A stretch of 64,000 nt of DNA from Candidatus Nomurabacteria bacterium RIFCSPHIGHO2_12_FULL_42_19 (GTDB taxonomy: Bacteria; Patescibacteriota; Minisyncoccia; Phycocordibacterales; UBA9973). The notes under the pieces were generated by a model. The model searched no databases, was not told the DNA's origin, and saw nothing but the letters and a program-made list of their open reading frames with translations. Below, one piece after another: positions 4,938 to 60,875 of this stretch. The position numbers and the translations under genes are program-made. The DNA lies in NCBI GenBank assembly GCA_001786955.1, contig MFUM01000009.1, positions 552 to 64,551 on the forward strand, given 5' to 3'. Each line of letters starts with the position of its first letter. Within the stretch, counting starts at the first letter, position 1.

Positions 4938-5345
4938 ATGGAGGATAATTTTTCAATAATGAAAAACAACATTTTGGGGAAAAAATATTCCCTGTCAATC
5001 GCCTACGTCAGCGAAAAAACATCTAGAGAAATAAATAAGGAATATAAAAATAAAAACAAGCCCGCGAATATTTTGTCTTTTCCGCTCCGTAAAAATAAGG
5101 GCGAAATTGTGCTTTGCCCGACAGTCATAAAGCGGGAGGCTAAAAGTTTTGGAAAAACTTTTAGCCGGTATTTGGGCTTTTTAGTTATCCACGGAATGCT
5201 TCATTTGAAAGGAATGGAACATAGTAGTAGAATGGAAGAAGCGGAGAAAAAATATGATCAGAAATATTTCTGTCGGGATAGACGTAGGGTCGTCCATGAC
5301 GCGGGTCGTGGTCGGGGAGTTTTTAAAGGGAGAAAAAAATCCTAA
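4938..5345 (+). CDS. ybeY: Endoribonuclease YbeY (rRNA maturation factor)
   Basis: Zinc-binding motif HGMLHLKGMEH (HxxxHxxxxxH). The ORF runs about 92 nt into ftsA, and the tail of the reading frame is Arg-rich and probably not conserved. Confidence 0.75.
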   Translation: MEDNFSIMKNNILGKKYSLSIAYVSEKTSREINKEYKNKNKPANILSFPLRKNKGEIVLCPTVIKREAKSFGKTFSRYLGFLVIHGMLHLKGMEHSSRMEEAEKKYDQKYFCRDRRRVVHDAGRGRGVFKGRKKS

Positions 5346-6417
5346 GATTATCGGCGTGGGCGAAAATGCCACTCTCGGTGTCAGGCATGGTTATGTTGTA
5401 AATTCGGCTCTGGCCGCCGTTTCGGTAAAAAATGCCGTCGCTATGGCGGAAAAATTTTCGGGTGTGAAAATAAAGCGCGCTTTTGTTTCGCTGAGCGGCA
5501 CGACTTTGCGTGGAGAAATGAGTTCAGGTTCGACGATTATTTCCAAAGCCGACGGCGAGGTAACCAGCCTGGACGCCAATAAGGCGCTGCAGGATTGTGA
5601 AGACAATTTGAGCCTGGGCAATAAAAAAATCGTTCATATGTATCCCATCGCTTTCCGGCTTGACGGTAAAGAGGTATTGGGCCGGCTGGAAGGCATGCGC
5701 GGAACCAAGCTTGAGGCTAAAGCTCTTTTTGTCACATATTCTATCCAGCATCTGGAAGACCTGCTCGGGGCTATCGCGGAAGCCGGAGTGGAAACGATAG
5801 ACGTGGTTGCGGCGCCGATAGCCATTAATAATATCGCCCTGTCGGAAAAACAAAAAATAGTCGGAGTGGCGCTGGTTGACATCGGAGACCAAACGACTTC
5901 CCTTTCTGTTTTTGAAAACGGATTATTGGTATCAATCTACACTTTCTCCATCGGCTCTTCGGAAATTACCAACGACATTGCCCTTGGTTTTAAAATTTCA
6001 TTAGAAAAAGCGGAAAGCTTAAAACTTGGAAACATCGAGGAAGAATTTTCAAAGAAAAAACTTGACGAAATTATTGAAGCGCGCCTTTGCGACATTTTTG
6101 AATCAATAGAAAACAATTTAAAAAAAATAAAGAGGTCGGAGCTCTTGCCGGCCGGCATAGTTTTCGTGGGCGGCGGTTCAAACATTCCCGGTCTGGCGGA
6201 ATTGTCAAAATCCATCCTGAAACTCCCTTCCAGCCTGGGATCTACGGAAATTTTTGGCAACGCCAAAACCAAACTTCGCGATTCGTCGTGGTTTACGGCT
6301 TTGGGACTCTTGACTTCAGGCAAAGACAACGGAAGCTACTCGGGAAGCTCGCTCAAAAACTTTTTTAAGGACCTAAAAAACACAATGAAATCAAGCATGA
6401 AACAGCTAATGCCGTAG
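5254..6417 (+). CDS. ftsA: Cell division protein FtsA
   Basis: 387 aa with the actin-like N-terminus ISVGIDVGSSMTRVVVGE. It lies directly upstream of ftsZ. Confidence 0.9.
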   Translation: MIRNISVGIDVGSSMTRVVVGEFLKGEKNPKIIGVGENATLGVRHGYVVNSALAAVSVKNAVAMAEKFSGVKIKRAFVSLSGTTLRGEMSSGSTIISKADGEVTSLDANKALQDCEDNLSLGNKKIVHMYPIAFRLDGKEVLGRLEGMRGTKLEAKALFVTYSIQHLEDLLGAIAEAGVETIDVVAAPIAINNIALSEKQKIVGVALVDIGDQTTSLSVFENGLLVSIYTFSIGSSEITNDIALGFKISLEKAESLKLGNIEEEFSKKKLDEIIEARLCDIFESIENNLKKIKRSELLPAGIVFVGGGSNIPGLAELSKSILKLPSSLGSTEIFGNAKTKLRDSSWFTALGLLTSGKDNGSYSGSSLKNFFKDLKNTMKSSMKQLMP

Positions 6418-6526: not shown

Positions 6527-7765
6527 ATGTCTCCATATAAGTTAAGCGATTTTTTATTAAAAATAAGCACTAAAATCATGCCAAAAATCAACCAGGAAAT
6601 AGAGAGTTTTGCCCGCATTATGGTCGTTGGAATCGGAGGCTCGGGAAAGAATACTATCAATCACATGATAAATTCCAAAGTCAAAGGAGTCTCTTTCATC
6701 TGCATGAATACCGACACGCAGGACCTGCACCACTCTCTGGCGGAGAAAAAAATCCACATCGGAAAAAATCTGACCAAAGGTCTGGGTTCGGGAATGGATC
6801 CGGAAATCGGCAAGAAGGCGGCTGAAGAAACAAAATCTGAAATCCAGGATGTCATCAAGGGAGGTGATATGATTTTTATTGCCTGCGGAATGGGCGGAGG
6901 CACCGGCACGGGCGCCGCTCCGATTGTCGCCCGCGCAGCCAAAGAACAAGGCATCCTGACAGTAGCGGTTACGACCAAGCCTTTTTTCTTTGAAGGCAGC
7001 CACCGGATGAAAATAGCGGAAAAAGGGATTGAAGATTTGGCCAAAGAGGTAGATGCCATAATCATCATTCCGAATGATAAATTGCTCCAATTGGCCGACA
7101 AAAACACTAATTTTAAAGATGCTTTTGCCAGATGTGACGATGTCCTGCGCCAGGCAGTAGAAGGCATTTCCGACCTGATTACCACTCCGGGTGTTATTAA
7201 TGTGGACTTTGCAGACATTAAAGCGATTATGGCAAATGCCGGCTCGGCTCTTATGGGCATCGGCAGTGCTTCAGGCGAAAAACGAGCCGAAAAGGCGGCT
7301 CTGGCAGCCATCAACTCGCCATTGCTTGAGGTTTCCATTCACGGCGCCAAGGGAGTACTTTTCGCTATTTCCGGCGGAGATGATCTGACAATTCACGAAA
7401 TTCAAGAAGCGGCAAAAATAATCACCGAGTCGATTGACAAAGACGCCAAGGTAATCTTTGGGACGATTCGCGACGAAAAATTAAAAAAAGGTGAAATAAA
7501 AGTTACCGTCATTGCTACCAGTTTCCCTGCCGACACGCCCCGCAAGAGCCTTTTTGGCGGAACCGGCGTGGGTCAGACGCTTCTCAAAGACGAGAACCCA
7601 GCGGTGGCTAAAAAAGAAATACACAATAGCATCCAGAGCGGAAACATCGGCAGCAGCGATTTCATTAAAAAAGGAGACAAGAAAGATGCCAAGGAAGAAA
7701 TCATAGAAGATGACGGCGACGACTGGAGCGCTGTTCCGGCATTTTTGAGGAGAAATAAAAAATAA
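6527..7765 (+). CDS. ftsZ: Cell division GTPase FtsZ
   Basis: Tubulin signature GGGTGTG and MVVGIGGSGKNTIN, with an acidic C-terminal tail. The true start may be the Met at MPKINQ. Confidence 0.93.
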   Translation: MSPYKLSDFLLKISTKIMPKINQEIESFARIMVVGIGGSGKNTINHMINSKVKGVSFICMNTDTQDLHHSLAEKKIHIGKNLTKGLGSGMDPEIGKKAAEETKSEIQDVIKGGDMIFIACGMGGGTGTGAAPIVARAAKEQGILTVAVTTKPFFFEGSHRMKIAEKGIEDLAKEVDAIIIIPNDKLLQLADKNTNFKDAFARCDDVLRQAVEGISDLITTPGVINVDFADIKAIMANAGSALMGIGSASGEKRAEKAALAAINSPLLEVSIHGAKGVLFAISGGDDLTIHEIQEAAKIITESIDKDAKVIFGTIRDEKLKKGEIKVTVIATSFPADTPRKSLFGGTGVGQTLLKDENPAVAKKEIHNSIQSGNIGSSDFIKKGDKKDAKEEIIEDDGDDWSAVPAFLRRNKK

Positions 7766-7787
7766 TTTTTTAAAATAAACTTTTGCA

Positions 7788-7851
7788 GGGGTTTTGAGGC
7801 TGTCGAGCCGAAAACTTCAGGATTTTTTAAGCTTTAAAAAATCCGTACCGG
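7788..7851 (+). repeat. Copy 1 of a roughly 64-nt conserved structured element, with A/T-rich inverted-repeat flanks at 7768-7784 and 7852-7871
   Basis: GGGGTTTTGAG-ggctgtcgagcc-GAAAACTTCAGGATTTTTTAAgctttAAAAAATCCGTACCGG. It is near-identical to 59556-59619 except for compensatory changes in the inner hairpin (ggct/agcc versus gcgc/gcgc). Confidence 0.7.
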
Positions 7852-7897
7852 AAAAAGTTAATTTTTAAAAATTTAACAAGTAGTGTAGAATATAAAG

Positions 7898-8824
7898 ATG
7901 ATTTATGAACTGATCATTATCGGGGGCGGGCCGGCCGGGGCGGCCGCTTCTGTCTACGCCGCCCGCAAAAAACTCAAGACCCTTTTTATAACATCCGAAT
8001 GGGGCGGGCAATCCGTCGTTTCCGAACAGATTTACAACTGGATTGGCACTCCTTCCCTGTCCGGAACGGAATTGGCGGAAAATTTTAAAAAGCATGTTTC
8101 GGCAAATGCCGGAGAAAGCTTGGAGATTAAAGAAGGTGAAAAAGTAATTTCGCTCACAAAGAATGCGGAAGGATTTTTAGTAAAGACGGATGGAAATAAA
8201 GAATTCGGTTCTAAAACAATTTTGATTGCCAGCGGCAGCGGACGCAGGAAACTCGTTGCCAAAAACGCGGACAAGCTTGAACACAAAGGCCTGACTTATT
8301 GCGCGTCTTGCGATGGGCCTCTTTTTGAGGGCATGGATGTTGCTGTCATCGGCGGGGGCAATGCCGGGTTTGAAACGGCCGCCCAGCTCCTGGCCTATTG
8401 CAAATCCGTCACGCTCATTAACCGAAGCGATTCTTTCCGCGCAGACCAGATAACAATAGAAAAAGTTTTAAAAAATCCGAAAATAACAGCAATTAAAAAT
8501 GTGGATATTTTGGAAGTTAGGGGCGATAGATTTGTGGAGGGGTTGATTTATGAAGATAAGGTTACCGGCGAGCAGAAAGAACTCAAAGTTTCGGGCATTT
8601 TCGTGGAAATCGGGCAAATTCCAAATACCGATTTTGCCAAAGGGCTGGTGCCCCTTGATGAAATAGGCAGGATAAAAATCGACGCCTGGTCGCAAAAAAC
8701 CGAAATTCCGGGCATCTGGGCGGCCGGAGACTGCACTAATGTCCTTTATCACCAGAACAACATCGCCGCCGGCGACGCCGTCCGCGCGCTGGAAGATATC
8801 TATCTGGCGATACATGCCCGGTAG
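7898..8824 (+). CDS. trxB: Thioredoxin-disulfide reductase
   Basis: FAD motif IIGGGPAGAAASVYAAR, redox-active CASCDG, and a second Rossmann motif AVIGGGNAG. Confidence 0.85.
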   Translation: MIYELIIIGGGPAGAAASVYAARKKLKTLFITSEWGGQSVVSEQIYNWIGTPSLSGTELAENFKKHVSANAGESLEIKEGEKVISLTKNAEGFLVKTDGNKEFGSKTILIASGSGRRKLVAKNADKLEHKGLTYCASCDGPLFEGMDVAVIGGGNAGFETAAQLLAYCKSVTLINRSDSFRADQITIEKVLKNPKITAIKNVDILEVRGDRFVEGLIYEDKVTGEQKELKVSGIFVEIGQIPNTDFAKGLVPLDEIGRIKIDAWSQKTEIPGIWAAGDCTNVLYHQNNIAAGDAVRALEDIYLAIHAR

Positions 8825-59156: not shown

Positions 59157-59220
59157 CCTCCCCCAAAGGGAGAGGTCTTGAATTCTTTCCCTCTCCTTTG
59201 AGGAGGGTCAGGGAGGGGTT
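59157..59220. repeat. Family-2 GC-rich double-hairpin element copy F, in the csoR-copA intergenic region
   Basis: cctcccc-caaa-gggagagg, then a spacer, then ccctctcc-ttt-gaggaggg, then tca-gggagggg. The architecture is the same as the lepA copy. Confidence 0.7.
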
Positions 59221-59483
59221 TATTTTCTCTTTAGCTTGTAAACTTTCAATATTTCTTTTGTTGCTTCTCCGGTCCGGCCTTTTTGGATTTGATTGACCAG
59301 GCAAGTCCCCAAATGGCTTGCCATAAGTTCATCTTCAATATTAGAAAGCCCCTGCTTCACAGCTGAAGTCTGGGTAATAATATCAATGCAATATACTCCT
59401 TCATTTATCATTTTCTGCAGGCCGCGAACCTGACCTTCAATAATCTTAAGCCGGCGGACCAGTTTTGATTTATTATCATGCAT
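59220..59483 (-). CDS. csoR: CsoR/RcnR-family metal-sensing repressor (copper-sensitive operon repressor)
   Basis: 87 aa with the DUF156 pattern and the Cys/His ligands YCIDII...SHLGTC. Confidence 0.8.
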
Positions 59484-59492
59484 ATTCAGAGT

Positions 59493-59513
59493 ATATACCC
59501 CCTGGGGGTATAT
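59493..59513. promoter_or_regulatory. Putative CsoR operator
   Basis: Perfect 21-bp palindrome atatacccccTgggggtatat centred 20 nt upstream of the csoR ATG. It matches the known CsoR operator architecture (GC-run pseudo-palindrome TACCC-N-GGGTA). Confidence 0.6.
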
Positions 59514-59555
59514 GTCAAGACAGATGCTTGTTGAAAACTAAAAAAAGGTTTTTAA

Positions 59556-59619
59556 GGGGTTTTGAGCGCGGCGGCGCGAAAACTTCAGGATTTTTTAAAC
59601 TTCAAAAAATCCGTACCGG
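59556..59619 (+). repeat. Copy 2 of the roughly 64-nt conserved structured element, inside a 15-17-bp inverted-repeat shell (59530-59546 / 59629-59645)
   Basis: GGGGTTTTGAG-cgcggcggcgc-GAAAACTTCAGGATTTTTTAAacttcAAAAAATCCGTACCGG. Outer inverted repeat is gttgaaaactaaaaa / tttttagttttcaac. Confidence 0.7.
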
Positions 59620-59648
59620 CAAAAATCTTGTTTTTAGTTTTCAACTTA

Positions 59649-60875
59649 TTAGATTACCCCCATTTCTCTGCCCACCTCGGACAAAATTTTAAGCGCCTGG
59701 TCAATCTGTTCGCGGGTATGCGCAGCGGAAATTTGGAAACGCAATCGCGCGGTGCCTTCCGGCACGACCGGAAACCACAACCCCACTACAAAAAGTCCAT
59801 TCGCCAAAAGTTTTTTGCTCATTTCCTGCGTCTTGGCGGCATCCCCCAGCATTACCGGCACGATTGGATGAATGCCGTCCAATACTTCAAAACCCAATTT
59901 TTTCGCCCCATTTCTGAAATATTCCGAGTTTTCTTTTACCTTAATTAAAAGCTCCGGCTTTTCTTTTAATAAATCCAAAGCCCTGATGGAAGCCATAACC
60001 ACCGATGGCGGCACGGAATTCGAAAAAAGATAAGTGCGGGATTTCTGGCGGAGCAATTCTATGATTTCTTTTTTGCCGGCAATGTATCCGCCGACCGCCC
60101 CGCCCAGCGCCTTGCCAAAAGTTCCGGAAAGAACGTCAATCTTCCCGTGCAGGCCGAAATGCTCCGGCGTGCCGGCGCCGCTCTTGCCCAAAACTCCGAT
60201 GGCGTGCGCATCATCCACGAATAAAAGCGCTTCGTATTTTTCCGCCAGTTCTTTCAGTTTCGGCAATTGTGCCAGATATCCTTCCATGGAAAAAACTCCG
60301 TCCGACACGATAATTTTAAAACGATATCCTTTGCCTTGGTCTTCCACAAGCATTTTCTCTAGGGCGACCAAGTCTCCGTGCGAATAAATTCTTTTAACCA
60401 TATTTTCCTTTTTACAAAGTTTAAAAGCGTCAATGATGCTGGCATGGTTAAGTTCGTCGCTGTAAATAGCATCCATATGCTCCCCTTCTGCCCCAAAAGC
60501 TTCATTGGTAAGAGTCGCGAAAAAACCCAGATTCGCCATAAAATTGGTGGAATATAAGATGCTGTCATTCACTTCCAGAAATTCGGCTAATTTTTTTTCC
60601 AAAGTTTTATGGATAGTTTCCGTGCCGGAAATAAAGCGCACCGATGACAAGCCGAAGCCATATTTATCTATCGCGTCTTTGCCGGCTTTTGTAATTTCCG
60701 GATGATTCGCCAATCCCAGATAATTATTTGCGGCGAACATCAAGACCTTCTTGCCGGCAATTTCCACTTCCGCTCCCTGAGTTCCCTCCAGTTCTCTTTC
60801 CATCTTGAATTTCCCGGCTTTTTTCAACGTCTCCAGTTCTTTTTCTATATCTTCCGCAAGTTTCTTAGAATACAT
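59649..60875 (-). CDS. kbl: 2-amino-3-ketobutyrate CoA ligase (glycine C-acetyltransferase)
   Basis: PLP-dependent aminotransferase class II. The pattern GxxFSMEG resembles the PLP-lysine region, and the N-terminus is Kbl/BioF-like. Confidence 0.8.
   Translation of the reverse strand: MYSKKLAEDIEKELETLKKAGKFKMERELEGTQGAEVEIAGKKVLMFAANNYLGLANHPEITKAGKDAIDKYGFGLSSVRFISGTETIHKTLEKKLAEFLEVNDSILYSTNFMANLGFFATLTNEAFGAEGEHMDAIYSDELNHASIIDAFKLCKKENMVKRIYSHGDLVALEKMLVEDQGKGYRFKIIVSDGVFSMEGYLAQLPKLKELAEKYEALLFVDDAHAIGVLGKSGAGTPEHFGLHGKIDVLSGTFGKALGGAVGGYIAGKKEIIELLRQKSRTYLFSNSVPPSVVMASIRALDLLKEKPELLIKVKENSEYFRNGAKKLGFEVLDGIHPIVPVMLGDAAKTQEMSKKLLANGLFVVGLWFPVVPEGTARLRFQISAAHTREQIDQALKILSEVGREMGVI

Follow-up and report, generated by a model that had tools for sequence, protein, structure and literature searches.

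What is the short sequence that occurs both between ftsZ and trxB and between kbl and a csoR-type repressor gene in a 64,000-nucleotide stretch of Candidatus Nomurabacteria bacterium RIFCSPHIGHO2_12_FULL_42_19 (contig MFUM01000009.1, positions 552 to 64,551; we will call the whole stretch the window)? An initial annotation had described a structured element of about 64 nt inside an inverted-repeat shell, and had favored a miniature inverted-repeat element acting at the level of DNA over a cis-regulatory RNA. We propose that both copies belong to an old family of small (~105–120 bp), non-autonomous, structured palindromic elements of the Paceibacteria, in the candidate phyla radiation (CPR), which resemble Rickettsia palindromic elements (RPEs) and REPINs. 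The conserved core would be a recognition module, and a terminator-like use is possible. We give this proposal as a whole about an even chance of being correct.

Two parts of the proposal are firmer. The element is inserted, repeat-type DNA, because it is dispersed in many copies, is present or absent as a whole unit, has inserted into a coding sequence, is nested in another kind of repeat, and lies at contig ends. And a single-stranded fold of one strand, as RNA or as single-stranded DNA, is under selection, because its mismatches are strand-asymmetric and its orthologous copies are conserved far above neutral.

Copies and fold of the element

Both copies in the window are real. The pattern GGGGTTTTGAG-N11-GAAAACTTCAGG (34 nt, with up to 3 mismatches) matches the window only at 7788–7821 and 59556–59589, both on the + strand, and it has no matches in 100 dinucleotide shuffles, for a chance expectation of 0. 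With filters off, a covariance model also finds only two full copies in the 64 kb, with scores of 104.5 and 103.9 bits. The copies are solitary and 52 kb apart. As the annotation stated, they lie in opposite orientations relative to their neighbors: the element strand is sense to ftsZ and trxB at copy 1 and antisense to kbl and csoR at copy 2. The differences in the inner hairpin are compensatory (GGCT/AGCC in copy 1, GCGC/GCGC in copy 2), while the second hairpin has the same stem in both copies and a different loop (AAGCTTT or AAACTTC). These copies did not arise by a recent duplication: the sequences around them are different, and orthologues of both are found in other species.

Scanning one genome per species with the exact pattern gave at least 117 loci; the copy counts that follow rest on the matches listed. 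At least 105 true copies were found, in Paceibacterota, Nomurabacteria, Vogelbacteria, Yonathbacteria, and metagenome-assembled genomes labelled as Patescibacteria or Saccharibacteria. A genome often has several copies (up to 3 per 8 kb), and some of the listed matches are at contig ends. Rfam gave no relevant match for the whole window at the gathering score, around copy 1 at E ≤ 10, or at three further loci at E ≤ 1. A scan of the window for tRNAs and tmRNA found unrelated tRNAs only, a scan of viral contigs with a 19-nt core pattern gave 0 matches, and full-text literature searches found no paper describing the element. The repeat family was previously uncatalogued, as it is absent from both Rfam and the searchable literature. 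We also noticed that a mechanically called open reading frame (ORF) at L091:5031–6494 begins inside a copy (N-terminus …GVLSAAARKLQDFLSFKKSVP…); this start is probably a spurious 5' extension, as such repeats can cause in annotation.

Each 64-mer folds by itself into two hairpins. With its flanks, it forms a three-way junction that is closed by a basal stem, P1 (−30.3 kcal/mol and z = −3.5 for copy 1 over the 121-nt stretch 7760–7880; −42.6 kcal/mol and z = −5.2 for copy 2 over the 131-nt stretch 59520–59650). In both window copies the fold of the + strand is more stable than that of the − strand. DNA parameters reproduce the three-way junction, and single-stranded DNA folds equally. So what the annotation called a shell is the stem P1: the inverted repeats exist, and they run into the GG...CC of the core rather than forming a separate layer.

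Across the family, the element comprises P1 (~20–25 bp), P2 with a tandem G.A and a GNCG loop, and an A/U-rich P3 with an AAGCUUC loop. P2 is the hairpin that the annotation had recognized, with an outer register that was one base off. Its outer helix consists of UUU/AAA, a tandem G.A/A.G, a 4-bp covarying tip, and the GNCG loop, which is also one base off the register from RNAfold (5 bp plus a 2x1 loop). We dropped the RNAfold register, since only the tandem-G.A register covaries: columns 21/39 of alignment A2, which includes covariance-model matches that were not selected by the pattern, are TA in 96 copies, CG in 9, and GC in 4. We also dropped a kink-turn reading of P2, as the canonical form lacks the 3-nt bulge. 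In one variant, the tandem G.A is displaced by two base pairs.

The covariation is extensive. In P2 and P3, 99.3% of alignment cells are paired, with 97 double-sided changes; shuffles give 21.8 ± 3.4, and none of 500 reach 97. For instance, P3 has the compensatory variants ACCUUUU/AAAAGGU and AUUUUUC/GAAAAAU. RNAalifold independently predicts P1, P2, and P3, with compensatory changes at 15 of 29 pairs. The sequence of P1 differs at almost every locus and always pairs (the median gapless length is 22 bp among the listed copies); cognate arms have a mean duplex energy of −30.4 kcal/mol, versus −12.8 kcal/mol with the 3' arm of another copy. The P1 arms of the two window copies are unrelated apart from TTTT...AAAA, and the proximal AAAATAAACTTTT of the 5' arm of copy 1 is common to a subfamily at other loci and in other genomes. 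Across 89 distinct aligned copies the core is nearly invariant, with no weight given to the 20 core positions that the search pattern fixed, and the conserved nucleotides of the junction and loops are the tandem G.A, GNCG, AAGCUUC, and GUA. Outside the core, only the junction-proximal columns of the arms are conserved; beyond the proximal 5–14 nt, the arms of most copies are locus-specific.

More divergent relatives retain the architecture with different helix sequences. A divergent variant (AGAGACTTGGGAGCGCGACGGCGCGAGCACGAGGAATTTTTT…, 31–42 bits) lies head-to-head with a canonical copy, about 25 nt away, in L012 and L095 (between convergent genes) and in L109 (between tandem genes). Secondary hairpins of 10–120 nt are inserted only at a loop or junction of the element: in the P3 loop in L002, L117, L006, L108, and L110, and between P2 and P3 in L063, L097, and L099. 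We considered that some of these might be autonomous versions with a large insert, but the P3 inserts of L002 and L117 are hairpins of ~110–120 nt and not genes.

Presence, absence, and persistence at orthologous sites

The order ftsZ-trxB is widespread, and we gathered 83 further loci of relatives. About 20 of these have the element just after the ftsZ stop codon, in either orientation. In about 45, the stop codon is followed only by the trxB promoter (TTGAC at −35 and TAGTGTATAAT as the extended −10), and neither a hairpin nor any remnant is present; other loci have unrelated palindromic inserts. On a tree of FtsZ, the filled sites are scattered and are frequently sister to empty sites. What is present or absent is the whole unit of P1 plus the core. 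We also considered that the core inserts into the loop of a pre-existing terminator. However, the empty ftsZ-trxB sites lack a hairpin, and in the subfamily with terminal inverted repeats (TIRs; see below) the variable complementary segment is internal, which speaks against the idea at these loci.

As for the other inserts, a palindrome of ~85 nt (…GCAACAGCGCTCGGACAATAGGCAAATAAATTTGCCTTTGCTCCTC…GTTGC) lies in or by the −10 region of trxB in L125, L137, L169, and L176. A third type, with CTAGGC/GCCTAG-like short repeats in a long imperfect palindrome, is found in L129, L151, L154, and L162. The spacer between ftsZ and trxB is a hot spot for small palindromic repeats of several families.

Once present, the element can persist. 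The ftsZ-trxB copies of the window, L134, L172, L147, L131, and L191 share the P2 tip GGCT/AGCC and have related proximal arms. The differences among them in P1, P2a, and P3 are compensatory, and L134 has a U.G intermediate. The four-fold degenerate sites of ftsZ are saturated (27–51% identity), versus 79–94% identity for the adjacent core. The Kbl protein of the window is identical to that of Candidatus Nomurabacteria bacterium RIFCSPHIGHO2_12_FULL_42_19. At kbl-csoR, L201 (Kbl 98%) has the same element, and L202 (Kbl 88%) has the orthologous copy in the same orientation, with the distal part of P1 compensated; the L202 copy keeps an opposition that reads A:C on the mRNA strand and G:U on the element strand.

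In L032, a complete element lies in frame within the gene for an M1 aminopeptidase of 862 amino acids. Homologues of this protein come in short forms of 817–827 amino acids without the segment and in long forms with an insert of 37–50 amino acids at the same position. Six long forms have a recognizable translation of the element (...INFLRG...SGFFKLQKIRTGKKF...; P0241, P0244, P0257, P0273, P0276, and P0322), and the insert is more diverged in further ones. In four of the genes, the DNA still folds as P1, P2, and P3, with compensated arms. The proteins are 68–75% identical outside the insert, and four-fold sites are 27–39% identical, versus 83–95% for the cores. On the + strand, two frames of the consensus core are open; on the − strand, all three contain stops. 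The more diverged inserts (…FLSRLSQAVEPRRSDFSAEKYATAKK…) are at the same position in P0242, P0248, P0303, P0308, and L208:101–2815; in L208, the insert DNA still forms a three-way junction with different helix sequences.

Is the element a classical MITE (a miniature transposable element with inverted repeats), with TIRs that are recognized by a DDE transposase, a target-site duplication, and a conserved center that is mere cargo? In one group of genomes, it does lie between conserved outer TIRs (TTGAATTACGAAACTC) that are flanked by direct repeats of 8–9 bp (ATGGATTA in L047, GTAAATAAT in L112, and ATAAATTC in L117). The same TIRs frame other payloads in these genomes, and positions at contig ends are typical of repeats. 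But it is the center that is conserved, not the ends, and past the proximal 5–14 nt the arms are specific to each locus in the window copies and in most others. Furthermore, the stretch between TIRs and core is variable yet complementary, which transposition from a single master would not yield, and no target-site duplication is discernible at the ftsZ site. A classical MITE therefore seems quite unlikely to us. The annotation's identification of a miniature inverted repeat does not hold: its shell is not a conserved TIR, and arms that vary but stay complementary around a conserved center are the reverse of a MITE or REPIN. Rather, the three-way-junction module can ride in a classical MITE and is not defined by one.

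The MITE-bearing genomes have related features of their own. MITE-like elements with TIR (T)TGAATTACGAAAC… and unrelated interiors are found at L044:545–655 (with a direct repeat of ~7 bp, TTCTTAA), L103:226–370, and L047:5476–5600, which suggests that one transposase mobilizes several payloads. In L103:1–1539, a 1.4-kb segment lies between two direct copies of the TIR subfamily. It contains two ORFs, of 167 and 205 amino acids, and may be a small cassette.

Strand asymmetry, gene ends, and a proposed mechanism

The mismatches in the stems distinguish the two strands. On the GGGG... strand, the non-Watson-Crick oppositions in P1 are G:T in 85 cases and A:C in 25 (p = 8e-9; listed copies). The ratio is about 3:1 in each gene context: 27:8 for copies that are sense to both neighbors, 27:9 for antisense copies, 20:5 for convergent genes, and 9:2 for divergent genes. 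It is strongest in the 12 bp nearest the junction (79:21), and P2 and P3 together show 16:6. Because of this excess of G:T on one strand, in P1 as well as in P2 and P3, the single-stranded fold of the GGGG... strand must be the one that matters. Selection on this fold and on the core is also evident from the persistence of the element at syntenic sites, from its conservation far above the neutral level, and from compensatory changes in all three helices. A purely DNA-level reading, as the annotation preferred, is too simple given the strand-asymmetric mismatches and the above-neutral conservation of orthologous copies.

The fold might instead be a structured RNA that serves the host, such as a 3'-UTR or processing element that binds a protein, or a self-cleaving ribozyme of a new kind, which would be dispersed because it is useful and whose mobility would be incidental. 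This would fit with a three-way junction that covaries in all helices, with conserved junction and loop nucleotides, with tolerance of G.U on one strand, with hairpin expansions at loops or junctions only and divergent variants that keep the architecture, and with conservation far above neutral at orthologous sites, even within a coding sequence. However, at about one-third of the loci the folding strand is antisense to both neighbors, with no room for, or sign of, a promoter. (Upstream of copy 2, we saw no convincing −35 or −10 on the + strand by eye, and −10-like hexamers in the 5' arm are inseparable from its AT-richness and the symmetry of the arms.) Also, P2a and P3 are conserved in sequence and not in pairing alone, which is unusual for ribozymes; no Rfam family matches, and the CUGA box of the hammerhead is absent. 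Finally, syntenic presence and absence and the in-frame insertion point to inserted DNA. We consider a host RNA of this kind unlikely.

The element has no fixed gene class or orientation. Its neighbors are unrelated, its orientation varies between species at one site, and the 94 classifiable copies among those listed fall into four contexts: 32 between convergent genes, 31 antisense within tandem genes, 19 sense within tandem genes, and 12 between divergent genes. So we rejected a gene-specific cis-regulatory RNA (a leader or riboswitch), which should have a fixed orientation, position, or gene class. The annotation's preference for a dispersed element over a cis-regulatory RNA stands, given these contexts, the syntenic presence and absence, the in-frame insertion, and the nesting in a MITE.

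Independence from transcription would also be expected of a DNA-level site for the host: a cruciform or single-stranded DNA bound by a protein for chromosome maintenance, recombination, or replication, which could take any orientation and could lie in coding DNA. The copy inside a coding sequence fits, the element folds equally as single-stranded DNA, and its core shows strong conservation across families. On both strands, the tandem G.A is in a Y-GA-R context, which favors sheared G.A pairs in DNA as well as RNA. Against such a site, the element strand is only weakly biased toward the C-rich strand (61:31 relative to local GC skew), and gene direction confounds this bias; the two window copies disagree, as both the skew and the direction of the genes are opposite around them. 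There is no known partner protein, copy number varies widely between genomes, and the sites are dispensable. We find this explanation very unlikely.

The element does favor gene ends: 82 of the 94 classifiable copies lie directly next to the 3' end of one or more genes, the arms often start within a few bases of stop codons, and the element often fills an entire convergent spacer. The distal 5' arm of P1 is A-rich and the distal 3' arm is T-rich. Among 111 listed copies, 54 have T4+ at the 3' boundary and 67 have A4+ at the 5' boundary, versus 27 and 25 with the reversed polarity, which is about a 2-fold enrichment. Certain housekeeping junctions recur across species: recA-efp, after rpsI, after rplL, after ftsZ, and by rny, a Xer-type recombinase gene, and dusB-like genes.

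Could these be ordinary bidirectional intrinsic terminators, without any mobility, that share an unusually conserved hairpin tip? The placement at gene ends, the A-tract/T-tract polarity, and the sites after rplL, rpsI, ftsZ, and recA are as expected. But this is at odds with the in-frame copy inside a conserved gene and with syntenic sites that lack any hairpin. Furthermore, the basal stem is AT-rich, a terminator scan does not call the sites, L005 and L070 have separate GC-rich terminators just upstream, and the strand asymmetry does not follow the mRNA strand. Of all the explanations we considered, plain terminators seem the most improbable.

Returning to RPE/REPIN-like elements, the comparisons above show that the element is gained and lost by genomes as one unit of P1 together with the core, that it has landed mostly at the 3' ends of genes and in one case in frame within a coding gene, and that it then persists at a site across species while selection keeps the core sequence and all three helices. 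The fold and core would be recognized on single-stranded nucleic acid by a putative trans-acting protein, for copying or processing. Flanked by an A-tract on its upstream side and a T-tract on its downstream side, the hairpin would be tolerated, and would probably be used, as a bidirectional terminator-like or 3'-end-protecting structure. A terminator-like role at gene ends is thus plausible, and we infer it from placement and polarity.

Several observations weigh against this proposal. For window-type copies, we discerned no target-site duplication on comparing filled and empty ftsZ-trxB sites, where the flanking DNA is rich in A and T and nearly palindromic, and no active transposition was seen. 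When 193 flanking ORFs were clustered, they formed housekeeping families only, with no transposase, RAYT, or other candidate partner. The invariance of 20 core positions in the main alignment was forced by the exact-pattern search. The asymmetry is less pronounced in the distal, locus-specific part of P1 (23:11, p = 0.06), and because of this it may be partly inherited from founder copies. For the terminator-like part, a scan with the terminator consensus does not call the element sites (the basal stem is AT-rich and the "loop" is a branched core of 60 nt), the terminators that precede the element in L005 and L070 are genuine, and the G:T bias is independent of the direction of the flanking genes. 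Lastly, long persistence and strong conservation are unlike purely selfish DNA, and host function is inseparable from selection at the level of the element.

We also speculate that the junction is a new class of functional single-stranded module that is specific to Paceibacteria, either the structure recognized within a putative, vertically inherited partnership of element and enzyme (a REPIN-RAYT counterpart in CPR bacteria that acts on a branched fold) or an RNA that is catalytic or binds a protein, under host-level selection at dozens of loci, including one inside a conserved enzyme gene. We regard this as possible but doubtful. Very few non-coding elements have been described from the tiny genomes of CPR bacteria, and this one is abundant, easily recognized, and present in many lineages of Paceibacteria. 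If a partner enzyme exists, it would represent a new system for mobilization or processing, in organisms that so far cannot be grown in isolation. In practice, the element causes assemblies to break, at contig ends, and gives rise to spurious extensions of ORFs; it could also serve as a marker for strain-level insertion polymorphism and as a natural data set on the evolution of stems under selection.

Features of the two window copies and their neighbors, and positions of the head-to-head pairs at other loci
Feature	Positions	Strand	Remarks
ftsZ	6527–7765	+	Stop codon TAA at 7763–7765
Copy 1, P1 5' arm	7764–7784	+	Variable basal stem; starts 1 nt inside the ftsZ stop codon; pairs with 7853–7873 in RNA and DNA folds
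Copy 1, conserved 64-nt core	7788–7851	+	Pattern and covariance-model match; aligns with 87 other copies
Copy 1, P2	7793–7814	+	UUU/AAA, tandem G.A (7796–7797 with 7810–7811), 4-bp tip GGCU/AGCC, loop GUCG; register and tip covary
Copy 1, P3	7820–7844	+	GGAUUUUUU / AAAAAAUCC, 7-nt loop AAGCUUU; compensatory variants elsewhere
Copy 1, P1 3' arm	7853–7873	+	Followed by the trxB extended −10 (TAGTGTAGAAT)
trxB	7898–8824	+	ATG at 7898
csoR-type repressor gene	59220–59483	−	
Copy 2, P1 5' arm	59530–59553	+	GTTGAAAACTAAAAAAAGGTTTTT; pairs with 59621–59645; distal part compensated in the L202 orthologous copy
Copy 2, conserved 64-nt core	59556–59619	+	Antisense to kbl and csoR; pattern and covariance-model match; also in L201 and L202
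Copy 2, P2	59561–59582	+	UUU/AAA, tandem G.A (59564–59565 with 59578–59579), tip GCGC/GCGC, loop GGCG
Copy 2, P3	59588–59612	+	Loop AAACUUC
Copy 2, P1 3' arm	59621–59645	+	AAAAATCTTGTTTTTAGTTTTCAAC; ends 3 nt before the kbl stop codon
kbl	59649–60875	−	
L012, divergent/canonical pair	2501–2588/2614–2702	−/+	
L095, divergent/canonical pair	6907–6993/7016–7104	−/+	
L109, divergent/canonical pair	6574–6662/6683–6771	−/+	

The promoter of trxB was recognized by comparison with the empty sites in L118 and L120. Near copy 2, a perfect palindrome, ATATACCCCCTGGGGGTATAT, at 59493–59513 overlaps the csoR promoter (TTGACA…TATACT, − strand) and is conserved in L201 and L202; it is a likely CsoR operator. 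Elsewhere in the window, a classical bidirectional terminator-like hairpin with 15 pairs (AAATAAAAAATCCCTTCAGGGGATTTTTTATTT, 2568–2600) shows what simple terminators look like in this genome. The covariance model also has weak matches at 6355–6386 (11.7 and 10.6 bits, E ~0.5–1), to a hairpin (TTTTTTAGG-N-CCTTAAAAAA) that resembles P1 without the core and lies within the 3' end of an ftsA-like ORF (5254–6417). These matches are probably due to chance.

Comparison with known systems

RPEs (Ogata et al. 2000) are reportedly palindromic repeats of ~100–150 bp that are dispersed in a small genome, both between genes and in frame within protein-coding genes, where they are said to be translated as an extra peptide segment. 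They reportedly encode no transposase, and their mechanism of mobilization is said to be unknown. Our element is similarly a palindromic repeat that is found both in intergenic regions and in frame in a conserved gene. This is a likeness of kind and not of lineage: the hosts are in different phyla, and the likeness is set by behavior rather than by sequence homology. In contrast to RPEs, the element has a 64-nt junction core that is near-invariant across species, a locus-specific and covarying basal stem, and tolerance of G:T on one strand. We know of no report of these three features for RPEs.

Like REPINs, the elements are dispersed, hairpin-forming, non-autonomous repeats whose hairpins are maintained by compensatory changes (PMC3116915). 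In REPINs, compensatory changes on both sides of the hairpin are common, and a single-stranded fold was proposed as the form that is mobilized (PMC3116915). However, the arms of REPINs (the REP sequences) are conserved and the tip or spacer is variable, which is the reverse of what we see here. Also, REPINs are extragenic, while our element is found within coding sequences as well.

Bacterial MITEs such as Correia, ERIC, and BOX are also small, multi-copy, non-coding, and intergenic, and form long hairpins if transcribed; some act as terminators or processing sites (PMC3184786). Our element shares their polymorphic presence at syntenic sites, and in some genomes it is nested in a true MITE with TIRs and target-site duplications. 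It differs in that window-type copies lack conserved TIRs or a demonstrable target-site duplication, and in being conserved across many species instead of within one genome lineage. With intrinsic terminators (PMC5381666), it shares hairpins at gene ends, compensatory evolution of the stem, and A-tract/T-tract flanks; the conserved branched tip of 64 nt, the presence/absence polymorphism, the insertion into a coding sequence, and the strand bias that ignores gene direction set it apart.

The three-way junction is reminiscent of hammerhead ribozymes (RF00008/RF00163). Stem II and the tip of P2 are both flanked by GA at 5' and by GAAA at 3', which gives a tandem G.A, and the 3' strand of the closing stem is immediately preceded by a GUA triplet. 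But our element lacks the CUGA box and has an extra UUU/AAA helix and a UUCA linker. We rejected a hammerhead, as there is no Rfam match even at E ≤ 10 and the CUGANGA core is absent, with the corresponding strand being GGUUUUGA in all copies; the resemblance is only that. We also rejected CRISPR or TIGR-type arrays, as the window copies stand alone. TIGR stem arrays carry box C/D motifs and spacers (PMC12045711), which are absent from our element.

Overall, the element unites traits that are usually separate: in-frame insertion as in RPEs, persistence and compensatory evolution as in REPINs, and a conserved branched core that resembles a recognition module.

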